DNA from: a virus
Lineage: Duplodnaviria > Caudoviricetes
IMG/VR virus record: IMGVR_UViG_3300044816_000060
Coordinates: 2,080 to 66,079 of that record
Reading direction: 5' to 3' (one strand)
Length of the DNA stretch: 64,000 bases
Below, piece after piece: positions 3,166-44,970 of this stretch. The position numbers and the translations under genes are program-made. The notes beneath the pieces were generated by a model. That model searched no databases. It was given only the letters and a program-made list of their open reading frames with translations, and was not told where the DNA came from. Positions within the stretch are counted from its first letter, which is position 1; the number at the start of each line of letters is the position of its first letter.

Positions 3166-4410
3166 TTAAGCGCCCAGCGTGAGCTTGACCCCGCGAACGA
3201 ACGTTTTGGTGCTGCCCTCAGCCGTGGTGGTGGTGACCGCCACCGCCGGGGACGTGCCACCGGTGAACGAACCGGTCGCGGTCATCTGCGGCGGGTTCAG
3301 CCCGTCCAGGTCCAGGGTGATGGTCACCGCGGTACCCGGCAGAGCGCCGCCGGCGGCCGTGATCTGGTTGGCGGCCAGTGTGGTGCCCGCGACCAGGGCG
3401 GCCTTCACCTGCGCGGCGGTGGCGTTGTACGCGATCGCGGCCGTGGTGTTGCCGTCGTAGGTCAGGGTGAATGAACCGCCAGTCGGCGTGCCGGTCACGG
3501 TGACGGTCTGGACCTCGTTCGACTCCGGCCCGTCGATGATCGCCGAGCAGCCCATGTACAGGTCGACCATGGACCGATCCTGGGCGTTGCGGAAGTCGTA
3601 GTCCTTGATCCACCGCAGGCTGAGCCCGTTCTTGCTCAGGGTCGAGCCGTAGCTGGCGCCGCTGGGCACCTTGGGCGCGATCATGACCGCGCTGTAGGCG
3701 GTGCGGTGGAACGCGTAACCCTCGTCCGGGTTCAACGCCAGGGACACCACCACCTGCGGGAAGCCCGCGATACGGCCGATGGTGGCGTCCCGAAGAGCCG
3801 ACCCGGCACCCGAATCGCCGGAGGCGTCGAACCGACGGAACTGCGGATCCTTCAACAACGCGGCCTCGATCGCCGAACCCACAACCACGACCCGATCACT
3901 CATCGGCACGTGCTCATCGTTGAGGAACCGGCGGGCGTCCACGAACCCGGGGAAGGTGTCCGCCGCCGAGATGGTGGCGGTGTGCGCGTAGGTCGTGTTC
4001 TGCATGACCTTGGCGATCTTGTTCTCAGCGCCCTCGGACACCGCTCGCACCATGGGGGTGAGGATCTGGTCGGCGTAGGAAACGATGTCCAACGTCTCCT
4101 CCTCATCCGTTGTGGGCACCGCCGAGTAGATGGCCTGGTCCAGGGTCACATCGACCTTGGTCTCGACCAGGCTGTCCATCGTGATGATGCCGTCGCCCTC
4201 AGACGCGGTACCTCGAGCACCCCGAAGCGCCCTGGTCCGGGCGGTGGTGCGGGCCGGGACACGGATGGAGACGGTGTCACCGGCGTTGCCGACCCAGTCG
4301 GACGGCTTGGTGGCGTCCGTCCAGACCAGGGACGGGAGAATGATCTCCCGCTGCAACAGGCCCAACGCCATCGCGGTGATCTGCTGGGACTTGACAAAGG
4401 TGTTCGCCAC
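3166..4410 (-). CDS. major capsid protein with inserted module near C-terminus
   Basis: MANTF..., GDTVSIRVP, YAFHRTA, LSLRWIKDYD motifs; follows scaffold gene. Confidence 0.9.
   Translation of the reverse strand: MANTFVKSQQITAMALGLLQREIILPSLVWTDATKPSDWVGNAGDTVSIRVPARTTARTRALRGARGTASEGDGIITMDSLVETKVDVTLDQAIYSAVPTTDEEETLDIVSYADQILTPMVRAVSEGAENKIAKVMQNTTYAHTATISAADTFPGFVDARRFLNDEHVPMSDRVVVVGSAIEAALLKDPQFRRFDASGDSGAGSALRDATIGRIAGFPQVVVSLALNPDEGYAFHRTAYSAVMIAPKVPSGASYGSTLSKNGLSLRWIKDYDFRNAQDRSMVDLYMGCSAIIDGPESNEVQTVTVTGTPTGGSFTLTYDGNTTAAIAYNATAAQVKAALVAGTTLAANQITAAGGALPGTAVTITLDLDGLNPPQMTATGSFTGGTSPAVAVTTTTAEGSTKTFVRGVKLTLGA
3223..3290. repeat. 68-bp repeat shared with major tail gene (copy 2)
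   Basis: 67/68 identical to 564-631. Confidence 0.95.
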
Positions 4411-18948: not shown

Positions 18949-19385
18949 CAGAACGGGGGTTCGTCGCCGGTGGCCGGCGCGGGAGCACTCCCCCACGGAT
19001 CGTCGGCGGGCGCGGACCCCTCGCTACCGCGCCCAACCTTGTTGACCTTCGCCGTGGCGTACCGGAGCTCCGGGCCGACGTGTTCGACGTCCATCTCGAT
19101 CGACGTCCGTGTCTGGTCGTCCTTGGTGTACGAGCGGACCTTCAGTCGTCCGTGGACCAGGACGCGGGAGCCACGAATCAGGCTCTCGGCGACGTTCTCC
19201 GCCTGCTGCCGCCACACCGCGCAGCGGACCCACATCGTCTCTCCGTCGACCCAGGCGTCGCCGTCCTTCACTCGGGGCGTGGAGGCCACGACGAAGTTGC
19301 ACACGGCGACGCCAGAGGGCAGGAAGCGCAGCTCAGGATCCTTGGCCAGGTTGCCGCACAGTGTCGTTACCGGTTCGCCGCTCAT
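18948..19385 (-). CDS. ssb: single-stranded DNA-binding protein
   Basis: GNL..DPELRF.PSG.AV.NF; acidic DEPPF tail. Confidence 0.95.
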   Translation of the reverse strand: MSGEPVTTLCGNLAKDPELRFLPSGVAVCNFVVASTPRVKDGDAWVDGETMWVRCAVWRQQAENVAESLIRGSRVLVHGRLKVRSYTKDDQTRTSIEMDVEHVGPELRYATAKVNKVGRGSEGSAPADDPWGSAPAPATGDEPPF

Positions 19386-19852
19386 GCCGCGTTCTCCTCA
19401 AATCCTTCGGGGGCTGTGGTGTCGACCCACCGGCCAGCGGCCGGGAGTTGCCAGTGGGCGCCGTGCCGCAGCACAGCCCGGCTGGCGGGGTCGGTGTTCG
19501 GGTGGACGATGTAGCCGCGTTCCCGGGCCCAGGTGCGGTTGTCGTGGGCTTCCGAGTGGCAGCGCGGGTGAAGCGCCAGGAGATTCGCTGGCTCGTCTCT
19601 GCCGCCTTGTGAGCGGAGCTTCCGGTGGTGACATTCCCAGCGTTTCTCCGACAGGCCCTGGCCGCAGATGGCGCAGCGTCCGCCGTCGCGGTCCCACACC
19701 AGGTCCCGCAGTTCTTTCGGCATCGGCGGCCGGCGGAGTTTGAACACGGGCGGTTTGAGCCGGACGACCGGCCTGGACCGAGAGGAGAGGGGGAGGTTCG
19801 AGCGGAGCGGCTGCTTGCGGGGCCACGATCCGGTGCGTCGAAGCGGGCTCAT
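19382..19852 (-). CDS. HNH endonuclease
   Basis: RDGGRCAICG...HHRK.RSQGG...NLLAL...CH. Confidence 0.85.
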   Translation of the reverse strand: MSPLRRTGSWPRKQPLRSNLPLSSRSRPVVRLKPPVFKLRRPPMPKELRDLVWDRDGGRCAICGQGLSEKRWECHHRKLRSQGGRDEPANLLALHPRCHSEAHDNRTWARERGYIVHPNTDPASRAVLRHGAHWQLPAAGRWVDTTAPEGFEENAA

Positions 19853-20223
19853 TAGTCGTACTCCGCGATCCGTGCGTCCAGGTGGCCGATCAGCCAATTC
19901 GTGGATTTCCGGTACAAGGCGTCGTAATCCGAGTCCTCCCCGGCCTCCTCACGCAGCTTGTGCAGCCGGAAGACACGGTTCCTGATCAGTTGGGCTTGCG
20001 ACTTGATGTCGCGGTCGATGTCTTCCTTCGGGACGTCGGCTTCGCTCAGGTTGGTTTCGGAGAACAGGAACCAACCGACCCGCTGGAACGCCTGATGGAT
20101 GATGGCGAACTCGGCGTCGCTGATCTCGGCGGTGGATCGGACGGTTACGCTTGTTGATCTGTCAACATGCATTCGGATCGTGCCGACTGTGACAGGCAAC
20201 GTAAAACGAAGCGGCTCGCTCAT
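19852..20223 (-). CDS. hypothetical protein with recoded 5' end
   Basis: ATGA-coupled to HNH stop; N-terminus resembles the start of the upstream HNH. Confidence 0.75.
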   Translation of the reverse strand: MSEPLRFTLPVTVGTIRMHVDRSTSVTVRSTAEISDAEFAIIHQAFQRVGWFLFSETNLSEADVPKEDIDRDIKSQAQLIRNRVFRLHKLREEAGEDSDYDALYRKSTNWLIGHLDARIAEYD

Positions 20224-21011
20224 GACGTCGTCACCCCGGCTCGCCGCGCGGCCCGCGTAGCCCGCGCACGTTCGCGCTGGCACGTCCGGCATGCCCTGGC
20301 ACCCGCCTTGTTGATGTGCGTGTTCTCAGCCGTGTACTCGTGCCCATGCGGGCAGTGGGTCCGCTCCCATGGCGCAGGAAGACTCCCGGACGACTGACGC
20401 TTGTCTTTCGCCCACGATGCCAGGCACGGCCGACAGCGCCGGGAGTTGTCACTGACTCGGAACTGAGTGTTCTCCGGGGTCAACTCGTGTCCGTTAAGGC
20501 AATGCGTTCGAAGTACACCGTGCAGGCCACGGCGAGTGTTCTCAGCGGGAGTGACCGCCTCCAGATGTTCTGGGTTCACACAGTTGCGGACGCGGCACAG
20601 ATGGTCGATATGCATACCACTTGGGATCGGCCCGATCCGCTGCTCGTACACCCATCGGTGAGCCAATGGCGTCCTCGTCGGAGACAGGCGGATCGAAACG
20701 GCCATGCCGTACCCGCTATCGCTCGCGATCGGTCCAGTCCAGATCCAGCAGCCATCGTCAGTGGTGGGCCGCAAAACGTGCGACCAGAACCAGAGTTCCG
20801 GATTCGACTTGGCCGTGACCGGATACAACCGGCCATGCTTCGACATCCGCGCTTGGTGACGGCCACACATCCCGTGTGAGTGAACGTTCTTCGAGCAGGT
20901 CACGACGCTGCACTTGGCGGTGGCCTGCTCGTCGGAGCGGTCCACGTGCATCGCAATCCGGCCCACAGTGACAGGCAGTGTGAACTTCAAGGCTTCACTC
21001 GCGGTGGTCAT
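20220..21011 (-). CDS. HNH homing endonuclease with two C-terminal Zn modules
   Basis: GCWIWTG..GYG..AHRW.YE...IDHLCRVRNCVNPEHL; CxxGH..TxENT..RxCxxC twice. Confidence 0.9.
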   Translation of the reverse strand: MTTASEALKFTLPVTVGRIAMHVDRSDEQATAKCSVVTCSKNVHSHGMCGRHQARMSKHGRLYPVTAKSNPELWFWSHVLRPTTDDGCWIWTGPIASDSGYGMAVSIRLSPTRTPLAHRWVYEQRIGPIPSGMHIDHLCRVRNCVNPEHLEAVTPAENTRRGLHGVLRTHCLNGHELTPENTQFRVSDNSRRCRPCLASWAKDKRQSSGSLPAPWERTHCPHGHEYTAENTHINKAGARACRTCQRERARATRAARRAGVTTS

Positions 21012-22948
21012 GACGCCACCTGCACCGGCTTGAGCGCGTTCCCCCGGGCCACGATGAGCTGGCCCAGGACGGTCGGGTTGCCGTCACCGTCGGTGACCGG
21101 CGCGTTCAGCAGGCCCAGGTCGGACACCTTCGTGTGCAGGTCCCGCAGGCCCTGGTAGGTGGCGTCCGGGTCCAGCGCCTCAGCACGGTAGGCCAACGGG
21201 CCCGGAACGTCCTCGCCGTCGGCCAACCAATCCCGGATCACCTCCGCCAGTTCCGGGCCGGGCCTCTCGATCACCGCACCGGACAGCACCGGCAGACGGG
21301 TCTTCGACACCGACATCGTGTGATCGGGGTCCATGTCGCCGATCAGGTCGAACTCAAACTCGATGCCCTCCCGCTGGTCAGGTTTCAGTCCGACCTTGCG
21401 GGGGACACTCGTGGTCCGGCCGTTGCGTTCGATCTGCTCGATCACGTAGGAGGTCTTCGTTCGCAGCGTCACGATGACATGGCCGGGATAGGAGGCCAGC
21501 GCGTCGAACATGCGCCGCTCGTCCGGTCGGGCCTCCTTCCACCCGGAGAAGGAGTTGCCGCCCTTGGCGCGCTTGTCGGCCTGCTCCTGCATCCCGTCCA
21601 CGCCGGACCAGTAGTGCGACAACGAGTCGACCAGCAGGGCGTCGTAGCCGGCACCAGCCGCTACACCAAGAGCCTCGGTGAGGGACGCCGGGGAGAACGA
21701 CTGCGGGTTGAGGGTGTCGAACTCCCACCCGTTCAGGCCGACGTACATGGAGGCACGGCCGCGCTCGGTGTCGATGACCGCCACCTTCTTGCCCAGGGTG
21801 CAGGCGAGCATCAGGCCGGTGTAGGTGTTGTGGGTGACTACGCAGTGGTCGGTGACGTAGAGCCGGTCCGCCGCAGCCACGGAGATGCACTGCACTGGCG
21901 CCTCGCCCACCGGCTCGACCCGCTCAATGAATCGAGTCGGCTGGTACTTGCTCCGTGGCCGGTAGGCGTCCCGCTTCCGGTCGAGCCGGAACGGTGCGAG
22001 CCCGGCCGGCAGCCGAAGCCGCATCCGGTGCGACAGGGCCCCGGCTCGGCGTTCCCCGTTGTGCACGTACTCAGGTACACGAGTGCCCACAGTGGTCAGC
22101 CCACCGAGCGACTCGACCAGGAACCGGACGTCATCACAAAGGGCTGCTGATGAGGTGCTGTACTCCAGGTTGCTGCCCTTCGCGTAACCGTCCGTGTCGA
22201 GCAGGCCCTGCATCAGCGCATGGCGGGTCTTCGCGGAGCCGAACAGATAAGTGCGTGGGATGAACTTGGCGGGGGACTTGACGCCGGTGAGGCCCAGCGC
22301 CCGCAGCTCGGTGACGAGCGGGTTGCTGCCGGTAGTGGCGTCGCGCGTGATCGCCACATCGACGGCGCTCCCTGGGAGCGGGCGAAGGTGCACGCCCGCA
22401 GGTAGCAGCTCTGACACCATGTCTCGTATCTGCTGCTCGGAGTTGCAGAGCCGGACGAAGCGGTCGCCAAAATGACCGTCGCCGAGCAGGACTCCCAGTA
22501 GGTACGGATCGATCGGCAGCACATCTGAGACGTCAAACTCGACGGGCTGGACGAGCGGGACCGCATGCTGGCGCTTGCCGTGCCGATCACGAAGGTCGCC
22601 CATGATGTCGCGGAGCGGCTTAACAGTTCCGGGGCGCTTTGCTTGCCGGTCGAGGTAGGTCGTCGTGAGCCAGAGGTGGTCGGCCGTGCACTCCGTGCTG
22701 GCGCCGTCGTTGAACGTCACGCGGTAGACCGGCTGCACACCCTGTGGGTAGATGCCGGTAACGGTCGTTCCGCCACCGTCGGCGGAGGTGACCCGATCGC
22801 CGACGGTCAGCGCGCCCATCGTGGTCCAGCCGGTGGGCGTCAGGATCCGGGCATTAAGCGGCTGCGCCTTCCCCGCCCCGGATGGGCCAGGTAGCGCGAT
22901 GCGCGCCTTGACGGCGGAGCGCTTCGCGGGTGCGAACTGGACGGTCAC
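21008..22948 (-). CDS. AAA_24/Sak4-like ATPase interrupted by an intein
   Basis: GPSGAGK|T P-loop split by intein; VIDTERG, LVDSLSHYW, EFEFD motifs. Confidence 0.9.
   Translation of the reverse strand: MTVQFAPAKRSAVKARIALPGPSGAGKAQPLNARILTPTGWTTMGALTVGDRVTSADGGGTTVTGIYPQGVQPVYRVTFNDGASTECTADHLWLTTTYLDRQAKRPGTVKPLRDIMGDLRDRHGKRQHAVPLVQPVEFDVSDVLPIDPYLLGVLLGDGHFGDRFVRLCNSEQQIRDMVSELLPAGVHLRPLPGSAVDVAITRDATTGSNPLVTELRALGLTGVKSPAKFIPRTYLFGSAKTRHALMQGLLDTDGYAKGSNLEYSTSSAALCDDVRFLVESLGGLTTVGTRVPEYVHNGERRAGALSHRMRLRLPAGLAPFRLDRKRDAYRPRSKYQPTRFIERVEPVGEAPVQCISVAAADRLYVTDHCVVTHNTYTGLMLACTLGKKVAVIDTERGRASMYVGLNGWEFDTLNPQSFSPASLTEALGVAAGAGYDALLVDSLSHYWSGVDGMQEQADKRAKGGNSFSGWKEARPDERRMFDALASYPGHVIVTLRTKTSYVIEQIERNGRTTSVPRKVGLKPDQREGIEFEFDLIGDMDPDHTMSVSKTRLPVLSGAVIERPGPELAEVIRDWLADGEDVPGPLAYRAEALDPDATYQGLRDLHTKVSDLGLLNAPVTDGDGNPTVLGQLIVARGNALKPVQVAS
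21827..22867 (-). mobile_element. 347-aa class 3 intein with LAGLIDADG endonuclease
   Basis: Starts AQPL, ends VTHN|T; TADHLW, VQCISV; LLGVLLGDG and MQGLLDTDG. Confidence 0.9.
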
Positions 22949-23145: not shown

Positions 23146-23567
23146 GACGCCGCCTCAAGCAGGGCCAGCAGGCCGCACTCAACGTCGAGGTCGTCGTACT
23201 CCAGGTGTCTCGGCACCATGGCCAGGGTTTCGGCGAGCCAGTCCTCGACCATGGCCAGGCCGGTGGACAGTTCGGCGTGCCCGGACGGGGAGTCGAGTGT
23301 CAGCACCAGCTGGTCGGCGTCGGTGCGGACTTTGACGTCGTCGGCGCCGCTGGGGTGGAGGAGGCCTTCGGCGAGGAGGTCCCGCCCGAACACCCAGGTC
23401 GAGATGGGGTCACCGTCGAACATGAACACGACGGTGACAGCGGCCGGGTCGTGGCGGGTGTAGCGGAGCTGGGCGGTCACCGTGTCCGGGTCGTCTTCGG
23501 CGGCGTCGAGGATGGCGAACTCGACGGCCAGGCACAGGGCGTCACGGGTATAGAAGTGGCCGGTCAT
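23142..23567 (-). CDS. SsgA-like protein (SALP)
   Basis: LRY...DP.AV...F....WVFGRDLLAEGL..PSG.DDV.V...LDSPSGHAEL...VP...E. Confidence 0.85.
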   Translation of the reverse strand: MTGHFYTRDALCLAVEFAILDAAEDDPDTVTAQLRYTRHDPAAVTVVFMFDGDPISTWVFGRDLLAEGLLHPSGADDVKVRTDADQLVLTLDSPSGHAELSTGLAMVEDWLAETLAMVPRHLEYDDLDVECGLLALLEAAS

Positions 23568-24061
23568 GACGCCTTGCTCTCGTCGGAGGCGGGCAGCTCC
23601 AGCAGGCCGTTGGACAGCAACTCCCCGATCCGGCGGCGCAGCAGCGGAACCTGGGTCGGGTCCACGGCCGGCCGGTACGAGGACGAACCTGTGACCAGTT
23701 CGATGCCGGGGATGATCCCGCCGGTGACGTCGTCGTAGGCGAGCCCGGTCGCCTTGCACCGCTTCTTCAGTGCGTCTACGTAGGCTGGGTTGACGCTCTC
23801 CACGATCTCCGTCGGGGCGTGTTCCTTCACCCACGCCAGCAGTGCTCGCTGGTCGGTCACCGACGCCGACTCGGCGGCCTTCCCGATGGTGACCGCCCCG
23901 ATGACGGTTCCGTCGGGGAGTTGCGCGGTGACCCGCTCCCCCGGCTCCATCTGGGGTTCTAGGACGTTCCGGACGCCGGTCACGAGGGTGCGGACCTCCT
24001 CGGACAACCAGCGGGCCACCACGGCACGCCCAGCGATGACCCTGCTCTCCTCACGCACCAT
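23564..24061 (-). CDS. conserved phage hypothetical protein
   Basis: VTD..ALLAWVKEHAPTEIV..V.PAY...GIIPGI motif. Confidence 0.75.
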   Translation of the reverse strand: MVREESRVIAGRAVVARWLSEEVRTLVTGVRNVLEPQMEPGERVTAQLPDGTVIGAVTIGKAAESASVTDQRALLAWVKEHAPTEIVESVNPAYVDALKKRCKATGLAYDDVTGGIIPGIELVTGSSSYRPAVDPTQVPLLRRRIGELLSNGLLELPASDESKAS

Positions 24062-24632
24062 TTGCGACGCACCCTTCCTTTGAGGCGTGGTATCGCTGAC
24101 GTGCGCATACCCGACACGCCATCCCCCGGCCGTTGCTGCCGGGGCGGTAGTTTTCTGGCGTCTTCTCGTGACCCTTCGGACAGTGCGTCCGGAACTGTGG
24201 GTTCATGGACCGGTGGGTGTTGCAGGTTTTGCACGACGGCACGAGGTTGAGTGGATCGTTGTTCCGCGTGTCCGCGTCGAGATGATCGGTGAAGACCTGC
24301 TCCATGCCGGAGCCACGCCACGTCAAGCGCCGCCCGCACCAATTGCAGGACTGCGGGCCCGAGCCGATTCGCTCGTACAGAACCTTGCGATGCACGAGGA
24401 CAGTGCCGTCGGAGTGAGCCAATGGGTGCTCAGGCTCGGTGATAGAGCAGTAAGGACTCGTTCCCGTGATCACCCTGCCGCGAGCTTGGCAGGACCGCGA
24501 GCAGAACCGCTGGCTCTTCCTGGCGGTCCAGTGCTCCTTGCCGCAGTACCCGCAGGTGAAGCGGTGCTTCTTAGGCCGCCATTTCGCGGTGACGGCTCGG
24601 CCGGCGGTCACGCGGGGGTTGTCGTCGCTCAT
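24051..24632 (-). CDS. HNH endonuclease
   Basis: CGYCG..FCSRSC; HRKVLY; DHLD...NN...NLVPSC.TCN; Zn tail. Confidence 0.9.
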   Translation of the reverse strand: MSDDNPRVTAGRAVTAKWRPKKHRFTCGYCGKEHWTARKSQRFCSRSCQARGRVITGTSPYCSITEPEHPLAHSDGTVLVHRKVLYERIGSGPQSCNWCGRRLTWRGSGMEQVFTDHLDADTRNNDPLNLVPSCKTCNTHRSMNPQFRTHCPKGHEKTPENYRPGSNGRGMACRVCARQRYHASKEGCVANGA

Positions 24633-42866: not shown

Positions 42867-43535
42867 CTACAAGCTCAGGTGGAGTTGCTCCGAGATCGGC
42901 GAGTCGGTGGCGACGCGCTGGGTGGGCAGCAGGACTACTGCGCGTTTCATTGCGGCCAGTTCGCGCTTACGCGCGTTGATCTTCTCGCGCTTCGCGGCGA
43001 CCAACATCCGCTTGCACGGGACGCACTGGCGACCGCCGGTCTGCTTGATGATGTAGACGTTCTCCGGCGACAACTCGTGGCCGCGAATGCAGAACTGCTT
43101 GCGCCAAGGTCGGGATGTCAGGTTGTCGGACCTGGTCATCGGCTTAAGGTGGGCCGGGTTGACGCACTGGCGGTGTGTGCAGATGCGCCAGTCTTGGCAG
43201 CTCAGGTCCTGGTCGTGGCACAGGTGGCCGACGTCGTGGCCTTCGGGGACCGGTCCGATGAAGTACTCGTATGAGCGGACGTGGGCGTTCGTGTGCCTGC
43301 CCGTCACGCCGTAGCGGCTCTGGTTGACGAACCCCGGCCACGGCCAGCACCCGTTCTCGTCGGGTACGACCCTGGCAAGGTGCTCCTCGAATGACAAGTT
43401 GCGCTTCGGGAGCTCGCCGAGCGTTCCCCAGCGACGCCGGCTACACCAGCAGTTATGGCACAAGCCTCGGCCGCCTCGGCCCTTGAGTCTGCTGCGAGGT
43501 AGTCCGCAGTCCAAGCACGGGTTATCGTTCGGCAT
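42867..43535 (-). CDS. HNH endonuclease
   Basis: GCWPWPG..YG..AH..SYE...GHLCH...CVNPAHL; CxxGH Zn tail. Confidence 0.9.
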   Translation of the reverse strand: MPNDNPCLDCGLPRSRLKGRGGRGLCHNCWCSRRRWGTLGELPKRNLSFEEHLARVVPDENGCWPWPGFVNQSRYGVTGRHTNAHVRSYEYFIGPVPEGHDVGHLCHDQDLSCQDWRICTHRQCVNPAHLKPMTRSDNLTSRPWRKQFCIRGHELSPENVYIIKQTGGRQCVPCKRMLVAAKREKINARKRELAAMKRAVVLLPTQRVATDSPISEQLHLSL

Positions 43536-43566
43536 GTCGGTCTCCTGGTGAAGTCAGGTGCTCCGG

Positions 43567-43688
43567 CAGCTCAGGGGGTGTGTCCAGCACCCTCTGAGCC
43601 CTTAACTCTTATTATCCCAGCTCAGATCAGGTTTCGCGCGTCACTGGGCGATCAGTACAACCGCTTGTCGCGGATCTTGGTCAGCCAC
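43567..43688 (-). promoter_or_regulatory. conserved structured HNH-upstream element, copy A
   Basis: Colinear with 44844-44970; 12-bp hairpin at 43569-43599. Confidence 0.75.
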
Positions 43689-43898: not shown

Positions 43899-44054
43899 TC
43901 AGTACCAGTGGTTGCGGCCGCCGAGCGGGCGACCCGAGGCGCCGAGCGCCCAGAGGATCACGCCCACGACGAGAAGGAGAACGCCGATCTGATAGAGCAG
44001 GGAGATCCCCAGAAGGGCGCCGAGGACGATCAACAACACACCTAGCAAGATCAT
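43899..44054 (-). CDS. DUF6131-like small membrane protein
   Basis: MILLGVLLIVLG...LGASGRPLGGRNHWY; ATGA-coupled to HNH stop. Confidence 0.7.
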   Translation of the reverse strand: MILLGVLLIVLGALLGISLLYQIGVLLLVVGVILWALGASGRPLGGRNHWY

Positions 44055-44815
44055 AATTTGTCCCTGACTTTCAACTCGCGCTTGATGCGGCTAATCCGTT
44101 CCCGGCCCACTCCGAAGCGGGCTCCGATCTCATCCTGTTTCAGGCCTCCTGTAAGCAGGTCCCCTATTGCGCTCACCTGCTCGGCGGTCAGCCTGACTGG
44201 CGGCTGACGCCGATTCGGGATCTTGATTCGCGCCATGATCAGGCGGTACTGCTCGTCGGCGACCGCATCGAAGTCGAATGGCGCACTCTCGTCGGGCCTG
44301 TTTTTGCGAATGTTGAATGCGTAGAGGCAGGCCAGGCACCGGCGGTGACCGTCAGGGTTATTACGAAGGTTCGGCGGGATGAGCCGATGGCTACGAGGGC
44401 AGCACGAGATTCGAGTCTTGCAGTGCGTGCCGTGCTGGACGGAATCCAGCTTGTTCGCAGAGGGGGTGTCCCAACGGAGGTTCGACAGCCGGTTGTCGGT
44501 CCCGTCGCCGTTGCTGTGGCAACCCTCCATGCCGGGAGGCCGAGGCCCCGCGAAGGTTTCCAGGACGAGCTGGTGGACGTAGCGGGTACGCGCCACTCCG
44601 TCCCTGGAGAGCTGGATCTTCATGTGCCCCACCGAGGTGGCGCTCTTCCCGGCTAGGGACTGCCGCATCATCACGCCGGCGCATCGCCGTTCGACCCCGT
44701 TCCGCATCATCACTATGCGGTCGATACTGCGGACGTGGCCTTGATCGGACACCTCGTAGAGACCTTCCCACCCGGGAAGGGCCCGCCAGCGCGCGCACGG
44801 GATAGTCTCAGCCAT
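44051..44815 (-). CDS. NUMOD4-HNH endonuclease with C-terminal HTH
   Basis: WR.LPG.EGLYEVSDQG.VRS; VHQLVLETF.G; CH.NG...DNRL.NLRW. Confidence 0.9.
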   Translation of the reverse strand: MAETIPCARWRALPGWEGLYEVSDQGHVRSIDRIVMMRNGVERRCAGVMMRQSLAGKSATSVGHMKIQLSRDGVARTRYVHQLVLETFAGPRPPGMEGCHSNGDGTDNRLSNLRWDTPSANKLDSVQHGTHCKTRISCCPRSHRLIPPNLRNNPDGHRRCLACLYAFNIRKNRPDESAPFDFDAVADEQYRLIMARIKIPNRRQPPVRLTAEQVSAIGDLLTGGLKQDEIGARFGVGRERISRIKRELKVRDKL

Positions 44816-44843
44816 GTCAGCCTGCTTCCATCAGGTTGGCGTT

Positions 44844-44970
44844 CAGCTCGGGCGGTGCTACCAACACCGTCCGAGCCCTTACTTGTTATTCTCCCAGGTC
44901 AGACGTGGTTTCGCCTGTCATTCGGCGATCAGTGAGCGCCGCTTATCGCGATCTTGAAGCGGTCAGCCAC
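44844..44970 (-). promoter_or_regulatory. conserved structured HNH-upstream element, copy B
   Basis: Colinear with 43567-43688; 12-bp hairpin at 44846-44876. Confidence 0.75.

Follow-up and report, generated by a model that had tools for sequence, protein, structure and literature searches.

A soil-phage HNH gene fused to a displaced 5' gene end and followed by a respelled replacement: a probable end-replacement homing cassette without intron or intein

Free-standing HNH-type genes are found inside essential phage genes, as with T4 mobA and its gene 60 bypass cassette and with mobE, which splits nrdA in phage Aeh1. In these systems the extra sequence of the cassette preserves the function of the host gene and changes the target site, at the price of a gene left in two pieces or in need of ribosomal bypass. 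Here we describe a locus in a 64,000-nucleotide stretch (the window; positions 2,080 to 66,079) of the soil phage record IMGVR_UViG_3300044816_000060, whose parent record has 66,079 bases and direct terminal repeats and is rated complete. At this locus an HNH endonuclease gene opens with the first codons of its downstream neighbour, a conserved 123-amino-acid gene, and the neighbour itself is complete, with a 5' end spelled in other codons. The window thus shares with mobA and mobE a free-standing HNH-type gene inside a phage gene, together with extra sequence that would alter the target site; unlike theirs, its interrupted gene is restored whole by a duplicated 5' end. We consider it probable that the arrangement is an end-replacement homing cassette, free of intron and intein, in which an HNH body travels with a respelled replacement for the 5' end that it displaces.

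End replacement as such has been described outside phages. In Torulaspora and Lachancea yeasts, WHO elements give FBA1 a new 3' end, and the former one persists past the endonuclease gene (Coughlan et al. 2020, eLife, PMC7282813). WHO elements resemble the window locus in lacking introns and inteins, in pairing an endonuclease gene with a target-gene end (one that confers resistance in the WHO case), in holding a displaced old end as homology and in leaving a chimeric target (PMC7282813). The differences are that WHO elements act on a 3' end with an intein-derived LAGLIDADG-zinc finger enzyme in a eukaryote, whereas the window has a 5' end, an HNH_3 enzyme and a phage, and that only in the window is the displaced fragment translated as the enzyme's N-terminus and start (PMC7282813). 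Allele-specific cleavage was demonstrated for WHO6 in the same text (PMC7282813), whereas cleavage by the window HNH is predicted. Membership of the WHO protein family itself was considered and rejected, the window enzyme being an HNH_3 protein with no LAGLIDADG or Hint domain. Fungal mitochondria offer a second comparison in the open reading frames (ORFs) termed mORFs, which bring a foreign C-terminus to Allomyces atp6 and to Glomus atp6, atp9, cox2 and nad3 (Beaudet et al. 2013, PMC3630166). The mORFs and the window are alike in the in-phase insertion of an endonuclease ORF, in the duplicated gene end, in a native copy that looks like that of close relatives, and in an inserted copy that is diverged in DNA (63.5% in Glomus atp6) while the protein stays nearly the same; unlike the window, mORFs affect the C-terminal end, carry LAGLIDADG or GIY-YIG enzymes and reside in organelles, and they have their native fragment downstream, which for atp6 went undetected in mRNA (PMC3630166).

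Intronless homing by free-standing endonuclease genes, and the occurrence of nuclease genes at boundaries of genetic exchange, have also been reported (Barth et al. 2023, PMC10448857). An HNH homologue in Gordonia phage Malisha, discussed below, follows this pattern in that it lies exactly between a left flank near-identical to that of phage Spooky and a diverged right flank; the cases in the part of that report at hand are, by contrast, intergenic or intron-associated nuclease genes, with no in-frame capture of a neighbour's start and no respelled duplicate (PMC10448857). The ShiLan insertion in actinobacteriophage methylases likewise places an HNH inside a phage gene without intron or intein but, in the text available from that study, it remains within the host protein, with the HNH in another frame, and involves neither a duplication nor the rebuilding of a gene end (Arsenault et al. 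2025, PMC11855218). A literature search, with subscription journals and supplementary files outside its scope, found no description of the present layout in phages and none naming WHO elements together with phage. A Xanthomonas phage paper examined as a possible precedent (PMC2248197) was set aside because it concerns tail-fibre domain duplications in a different layout.

The window has a guanine-plus-cytosine (GC) content of 67%. On its minus strand the genes follow one another in the order AAA_24 ATPase with intein, HNH_3 gene, 123-amino-acid target, second HNH and SSB gene, the target lying in the recombination/replication module. The parts of the proposed cassette and its target are as follows, with GC3 denoting GC content at third codon positions and E the expectation value.

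20220-21011, minus strand: HNH gene, whole frame, 263 amino acids, ending in the stop TGA
20934..21011, minus strand: displaced resident 5' fragment of the target (codons 1-26), forming the first 26 codons of the HNH frame and matching the family N-terminus
20220..20933, minus strand: HNH body, comprising a short linker, an N-terminal Cys/His cluster, the HNH_3 core and two C-terminal Cys/His repeats (Pfam HNH_3, E 3e-16; phrog_826, E 2.2e-60)
20532..20666, minus strand: HNH_3 catalytic core, residues 116-160 (Pfam profile positions 2-46 of 46)
20137..20223, minus strand: replacement 5' end of the target, codons 1-29, with low GC3, a spelling unlike natural alleles and an ATGA overlap with the HNH stop
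19852..20136, minus strand: target body (whole target gene 19852-20223, 123 amino acids), with 95 relatives and GC3 0.85 in codons 30-123

A complete target gene stands beside a nuclease gene with no intron or intein, and a displaced copy of the target's end lies on the nuclease's far side, as expected of end replacement. The HNH first 26 codons repeat the target's first 23. When HNH codons 5-26 are set against target codons 2-23, 18/22 residues and 41/66 bases are identical, and 13 of the 17 degenerate codons common to both copies are spelled differently. The original prediction, made from the letters of this stretch, had said that the two peptides are nearly the same while their DNA differs at synonymous sites, that the downstream copy uses atypical codons, and that both junctions are ATGA-coupled; all of this stands, the quoted peptides being exact and the codons TTT, TTG, CAT, GTT, AGA, TCA, ACA and GTA being present ahead of the GC-rich body. 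At both gene junctions, ATPase/HNH and HNH/target, the stop and start overlap as ATGA, and in the first of them, GCGTCATGACCA, the ATPase TGA overlaps the HNH ATG. The copy pair is found at E = 1e-7 by BLASTP among the window's six-frame ORFs and at E = 1.2e-6 in a search of the phage's own genome; its Smith-Waterman score of 90 was reached by 0/20000 shuffles (best 51), and a repeat search reports it as a 50-nt direct repeat of 70% identity (20156-20205 / 20935-20984). A seeming likeness of the DNA just ahead of both starts was discounted as a sign that the duplication reaches further upstream: genes in the related genome assemblies L097 and L098 often end in Ala-Ser-stop, and both window junctions read GTCATGA. 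Such ends look like a shared translational-coupling junction, one that can mimic local DNA similarity.

The repeated segment is the target's own. The 123-amino-acid protein has 95 relatives of similar length (64-91% identity), and the segment is conserved across the 32 of these that were aligned. Because it is native to the target family and conserved there, the HNH carries a piece of its neighbour and not the reverse. In an AlphaFold model the target forms a beta-hairpin with helices, and the segment makes up the first strand and turn of the N-terminal hairpin (strands 11-18 and 24-30); no fold in the PDB matched this model at E <= 0.001, and the protein likewise fell in no Pfam or PHROG family.

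The HNH itself is sporadic. It is missing from 12/12 related loci that include the target 5' end (metagenomic loci L001-L010 and the genome assemblies L097 and L098) and occurs in the window plus two other protein records, the distribution typical of a free-standing homing endonuclease. When 89 target relatives are ranked by identity of the gene body, the top three (P0001, P0003 and P0002, at 94, 91 and 90%) are uninterrupted proteins of 126 amino acids whose N-termini agree with the HNH-fused copy at 20, 20 and 18 of 24 positions, three extra residues included, and with the downstream copy at 16/23. HNH-free alleles had been expected to join an HNH-type 5' end to the downstream body, and at the protein level these three do so. 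Searches of wider collections added little. A blastn of 19300-21700 against deposited phages gave 105 records that matched the ATPase part alone and covered <=19% of the query, tblastn of the target protein against the same phages gave no match, and IMG/VR scans with the single protein and with the family alignment gave no relative. A search among 218 candidates for longer, fused versions of the target gave nothing at E <= 10, although two fused proteins described below, P0097 and P0098, were likewise missed by it; a 30-residue query against 1.84 billion representatives gave 0 matches at E <= 0.001, being too short for a library of that size. Two soil sequencing runs contain parts of the window, in fragmentary contig cover with no HNH-less joint across the region, an outcome that weighs neither way.

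Composition and spelling both single out the downstream copy. Target codons 2-25 have a GC3 of 0.54, within the lowest 1.4% of 12163 windows of 24 codons drawn from 43 reference genes of the window. Over 27 codons the downstream copy has a GC3 of 0.52, compared with 0.85 for its HNH-fused counterpart and 0.74-0.96 for 10 natural alleles; the whole HNH frame has 0.75, with stretches near 0.5, and the reference genes 0.86. Among 55 pairs of natural alleles the mean identity of a 20-codon 5' segment exceeds that of the body by 6.1 points, whereas the window target, compared with the same alleles, is 3.3 points less alike in the segment than in the body, a value as low being found in 3.6% of the natural pairs. 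The differently spelled share of common degenerate codons is 11/15 (0.73) between the window's two copies, as against a mean of 0.38 and a maximum of 0.64 in 45 natural pairs, 0/45 of which reach 0.73. The replaced end and the rest of the gene thus have differing histories, as seen in the N-terminus of the nearest body relatives, in the segment-minus-body difference (-0.033 vs +0.061) and in a respelling above all 45 pairs: the target gene is a chimera.

A parallel case can be followed at the DNA level. A tblastn search of the window HNH against deposited phages returned 354 records. In Gordonia phage Malisha the homologue gp29 (37% identical) repeats over its first ~27 residues the start of the next gene, lysin B gp30; its N-terminus scores 91, where the null of the survey described below did not go above 78. 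Among 98 records that match the Malisha region, coverage of >=80% together with the HNH occurs in Malisha only, and the 30 closest Malisha relatives among the matches listed align on both sides of the HNH in two pieces, at 64-72% coverage. Malisha and Spooky are 99.6% identical over 3664 nt, a stretch that breaks off 83 nt into the HNH frame, and when compared with the start of Spooky lysB the Malisha HNH-fused copy agrees at 83/84 bases and the downstream copy at 54/84. The downstream copy has a GC3 of 0.63, natural lysB alleles 0.85-0.89. Four such alleles, with bodies differing by 12-17%, are 81-92% alike in the 5' segment and spell from 2/22 to 7/24 common degenerate codons differently; from these same alleles the Malisha downstream copy differs in the spelling of 13/19 to 14/18 codons, with a body 82-86% alike. 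These matches indicate that the empty allele is an HNH-type 5' end joined to the body and that the replacement copy is specifically respelled, so that what had been foreseen for empty alleles is borne out in DNA by an analogous pair of cultured phages. Malisha and Spooky each have one further HNH gene (L112 6879-7448 and L111 6622-7200), ~3 kilobases downstream of lysB in a region 76% alike.

It could be argued that the roles of the two copies are the reverse of those given here, the cassette having arrived with an N-terminal copy already ahead of its HNH and inserted intergenically, just upstream of an untouched resident gene whose 5' end is the original. The downstream variant Thr-Ile-Arg after the conserved glycine does occur in a natural allele, L008. 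We nonetheless regard this reversal as very unlikely, because the nearest body relatives have the HNH-type N-terminus and not the downstream type, because the outlier in composition and spelling is the downstream copy and not the upstream one, and because the Malisha upstream copy equals the empty allele at 83/84 bases while its downstream copy does not.

The enzyme is, by its sequence, a predicted member of the I-HmuI-like His-Me finger endonuclease family. It scores 59.2 bits against HNH_3 (PF13392), for which the curated cut-off is 24.8, over profile positions 2-46 of 46, and D136, H137, N146, H149 and N158 are invariant in an alignment of 13 HNH sequences. D136, H137 and N158 supply the conserved Asp-His and Asn of a beta-beta-alpha-metal site; they are equated with I-HmuI D74, H75 and N96 by motif position and by PMC12724721, as distinct from a structural alignment. 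A 47-nt internal repeat (20317-20363 / 20464-20510) encodes the two C-terminal Cys/His repeats; several homologues (P0101-P0105) have one only, and the repeats may be a variable DNA-binding module. The displaced fragment provides the start codon and ribosome-binding site of the HNH frame, and no other in-frame ATG, GTG or TTG lies between it and the first zinc-motif cysteines. Lacking a separate start ahead of its first cysteine cluster, the HNH relies on the resident start and ribosome-binding site.

Two kinds of self-splicing element were considered and rejected. A group I or group II intron is ruled out by an Rfam scan of 19300-21300 with no match at E <= 1, and an intron would in any case not account for the duplicated exon-like segment; an intein is ruled out by the TGA that ends the HNH frame, the separate start of the target and the lack of a Hint/intein domain. 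The architecture first proposed for the locus, a splicing-free in-frame insertion that borrows the resident start and has a full target with a respelled 5' end behind it, accordingly holds, with the junction after codon 26.

The HNH family is very large (2572 proteins at E <= 1e-5), and the fusion recurs in a few members. The target-family N-terminus is present on 2 of the 15 HNH homologues whose sequences were read, P0097 (75% identical) and P0098 (73%), and in both the fusion falls directly after the same serine as in the window and before the first cysteine cluster, with linkers after that serine of 2 residues and 1 residue, respectively, against 7 in the window. Each of the two N-termini is distinct from that of the window as well as from the other, and fits a different natural allele type; the remaining 13/15 have short N-termini of their own or a Cys-rich motif. 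As the three fusions are only 73-75% identical to one another, the association of HNH and target is old, a fact that could be taken to mean that the locus is a relic: a tandem partial duplication or a single ancient illegitimate insertion, with an HNH that no longer homes and is domesticated or decaying, and two copies that have drifted apart. That the HNH moves is itself a prediction, yet we judge this account unlikely because drift leaves too much unexplained: the HNH-fused copy tracks local natural allele types in three genomes, the synonymous differences exceed those of every natural pair, the Malisha insertion is clean relative to Spooky at the boundary of 99.6% identity, and the HNH motif is intact.

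To gauge how common the layout is, we surveyed 80 IMG/VR loci of the window HNH family, 72 of which were usable in a test of the N-terminus against the downstream sequence (8 were left out for open frames or short flanks) and 78 in a six-frame test of the flanks. Flanking duplication of a target gene end was found in 2/78, L038 and L096, both above every mismatched-locus control. In L038 the HNH N-terminus repeats a helicase gene start. The helicase of this 40% GC contig is rebuilt after the HNH out of frame (587-800), its replacement 5' ORF stopping after 45 codons and the Walker A motif lying in the +1 frame, and the frame break may reflect misassembly, the loss of a working gene or a frameshift that is required. 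In L096 a PLD-like gene on the opposite strand has its ~30 C-terminal codons repeated beyond the HNH (2640-2730 / 3215-3310; score 120 vs null maximum 105), which suggests that the same HNH family makes 3' versions also. Four other high scorers were rejected: that of L060 came only from two tandem HNH genes, and the flank-test scores of 79-95 in L028, L066 and L025 were due to low-complexity frames. Among 10 HNH homologues scored in nine cultured phages Malisha was the sole positive, in a sample that was not blind, since Malisha had been noticed through an unusually early alignment start; phage CN1A was left out of this count, its HNH not being annotated.

Sharing of the segment might instead reflect function, the 26-residue peptide being a working module, for example a docking strand that brings both proteins to the same partner and is kept in the HNH by selection. 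Retention of the in-frame fusion in three HNH lineages would fit such a role, as would the absence of any other start codon for the HNH. We find this highly improbable, given that the fragment corresponds in the model to only the first strand and turn of the target's beta-hairpin, that the layout recurs with unrelated targets (lysin B, helicase), and that in L096 the fragment is a 3' end on the opposite strand and cannot belong to the HNH protein. In the structural model of the HNH, residues 1-30 have predicted local distance difference test (pLDDT) scores <50 and no secondary structure, within a model that is poor overall (mean pLDDT 60.6).

The window also holds a second case of the same layout, built on an HNH of another family:

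24051..24632, minus strand: HNH gene of another family, whose first 18 residues repeat the start of the next gene (phrog_9443, E 2.7e-16)
23564..24061, minus strand: target of the second case, 165 amino acids (phrog_5168, E 1.6e-19)

This copy pair scores 51, with 0/20000 shuffles as high, and agrees in 9/12 residues and 21/36 bases, with 7/8 common degenerate codons spelled differently. Homologues of its target in L003-L007 keep the N-terminal motif and have no adjoining HNH, and an IMG/VR scan for the HNH at 24051-24632 found none.

These observations lead us to suggest how such a cassette could move. The mobile unit would consist of the HNH body and, downstream of it, ~27 respelled first codons of the target with their own ribosome-binding site and ATGA overlap, inserted in frame after codon 26 of the conserved 123-amino-acid phage gene. 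Insertion would displace the resident 5' fragment upstream, where it is fused in frame to the HNH, so that the HNH would be translated from the resident start, and the target gene would be rebuilt from the cassette's 5' end and the resident body; because of this rebuilding, neither RNA nor protein splicing would be needed. In a first step, the HNH would cut or nick HNH-free alleles near the fusion point, around codons 20-30. Repair of the break from a cassette-bearing genome would follow, the left end pairing with the donor's fragment upstream of the HNH, which would act as a left homology arm, and the right end with the gene body, and such repair would copy the HNH and the new 5' end. Finally, the respelled copy would be both a poor cleavage site and a poor recombination partner, with the result that the HNH would be neither bypassed nor deleted; the respelling could serve equally to block recombination between the two copies.

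Several points weigh against this account and limit how far it can be pressed. Cleavage of the empty site, resistance of the respelled copy and present mobility are predictions. Resistance cannot be read from the window, because, of the 35 columns in which natural alleles never vary, 2 are changed in the downstream copy and 3 in the one fused to the HNH. The first 24 codons are as poor in GC3, or poorer, in 2 of the 43 reference genes, and the low GC3 may stem from a lower-GC source of the whole cassette, the HNH frame having 0.75. The empty-allele evidence for the window itself (P0001-P0003) is at the protein level only, as is that from the fusions P0097 and P0098. In Malisha the lysB body is only about 83% identical to that of Spooky and the whole right flank is diverged; part of the difference between the two phages therefore comes from a long exchanged tract. 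Malisha gp29 moreover has an in-frame Met just before the HNH core, and fusion to the resident start may for this reason not be obligatory everywhere. The layout is also rare, at 2/78 metagenomic loci and 1/10 cultured homologues, both of them small samples of one family. With these points weighed, an end-replacement cassette made of an HNH body and a respelled 5' end remains the explanation we favour. Whether it stands for a whole class is a more tentative matter: we think it conceivable, though somewhat short of an even prospect, that phages hold a hitherto undescribed class of end-replacement cassettes in 5' and 3' versions, in which the displaced fragment is a homology arm that forces repair through the nuclease gene and, in the 5' version, is also the nuclease start, and in which the respelled copy rescues the target while being unusable as a cleavage site or a recombination shortcut.

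The surroundings of the locus are rich in other nuclease-type elements. The immediate neighbours are:

21008..22948, minus strand: upstream gene, AAA_24 (Sak4-like) ATPase split by a LAGLIDADG intein (Pfam AAA_24, E 2.6e-15; LAGLIDADG_3, E 5.9e-7)
19382..19852, minus strand: second HNH gene (PF01844; Pfam HNH, E 1.2e-8), unrelated to the first and directly downstream of the target, followed by the SSB gene

The intein of the ATPase is missing from the homologue in L097, and homologues of the second HNH occupy the same position in L003 and L098. The window has at least six selfish elements of nuclease type, namely the ATPase intein and the HNH genes at 19382, 20220, 24051, 42867 and 44051. Two different HNH genes among them (42867-43535 and 44051-44815, minus strand) are directly preceded by a 103-nt direct repeat of 75% identity (43554-43656 / 44831-44933), which extends into both HNH start codons and includes a hairpin rich in GC. 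Such a repeat may serve the nuclease cassettes as a common leader or regulatory sequence, or may be an intergenic target that was duplicated.

By combining the comparison of two gene copies within one phage with that of empty and occupied alleles among its relatives, our analysis extends end-replacement homing, described in a yeast nuclear gene and in fungal mitochondria, to phages, to HNH enzymes and to gene 5' ends with takeover of the start. It explains a recurring oddity of annotation, HNH genes whose first residues copy the next gene, and shows how the starts of such genes should be called. The duplicated segment delimits the probable recognition site, so that targets can be proposed from sequence for HNH enzymes not yet characterised; since Malisha and Spooky are cultured phages of one laboratory host, the mechanism is directly testable. 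It also offers a concrete route to the sharp mosaic boundaries and chimeric gene ends of phage genomes. If the broader class exists, it would be a natural counterpart of engineered cleave-and-rescue gene drives, the duplicated segment would mark the target site of each enzyme in the sequence, and the cassettes would drive the chimeric evolution of phage gene ends.

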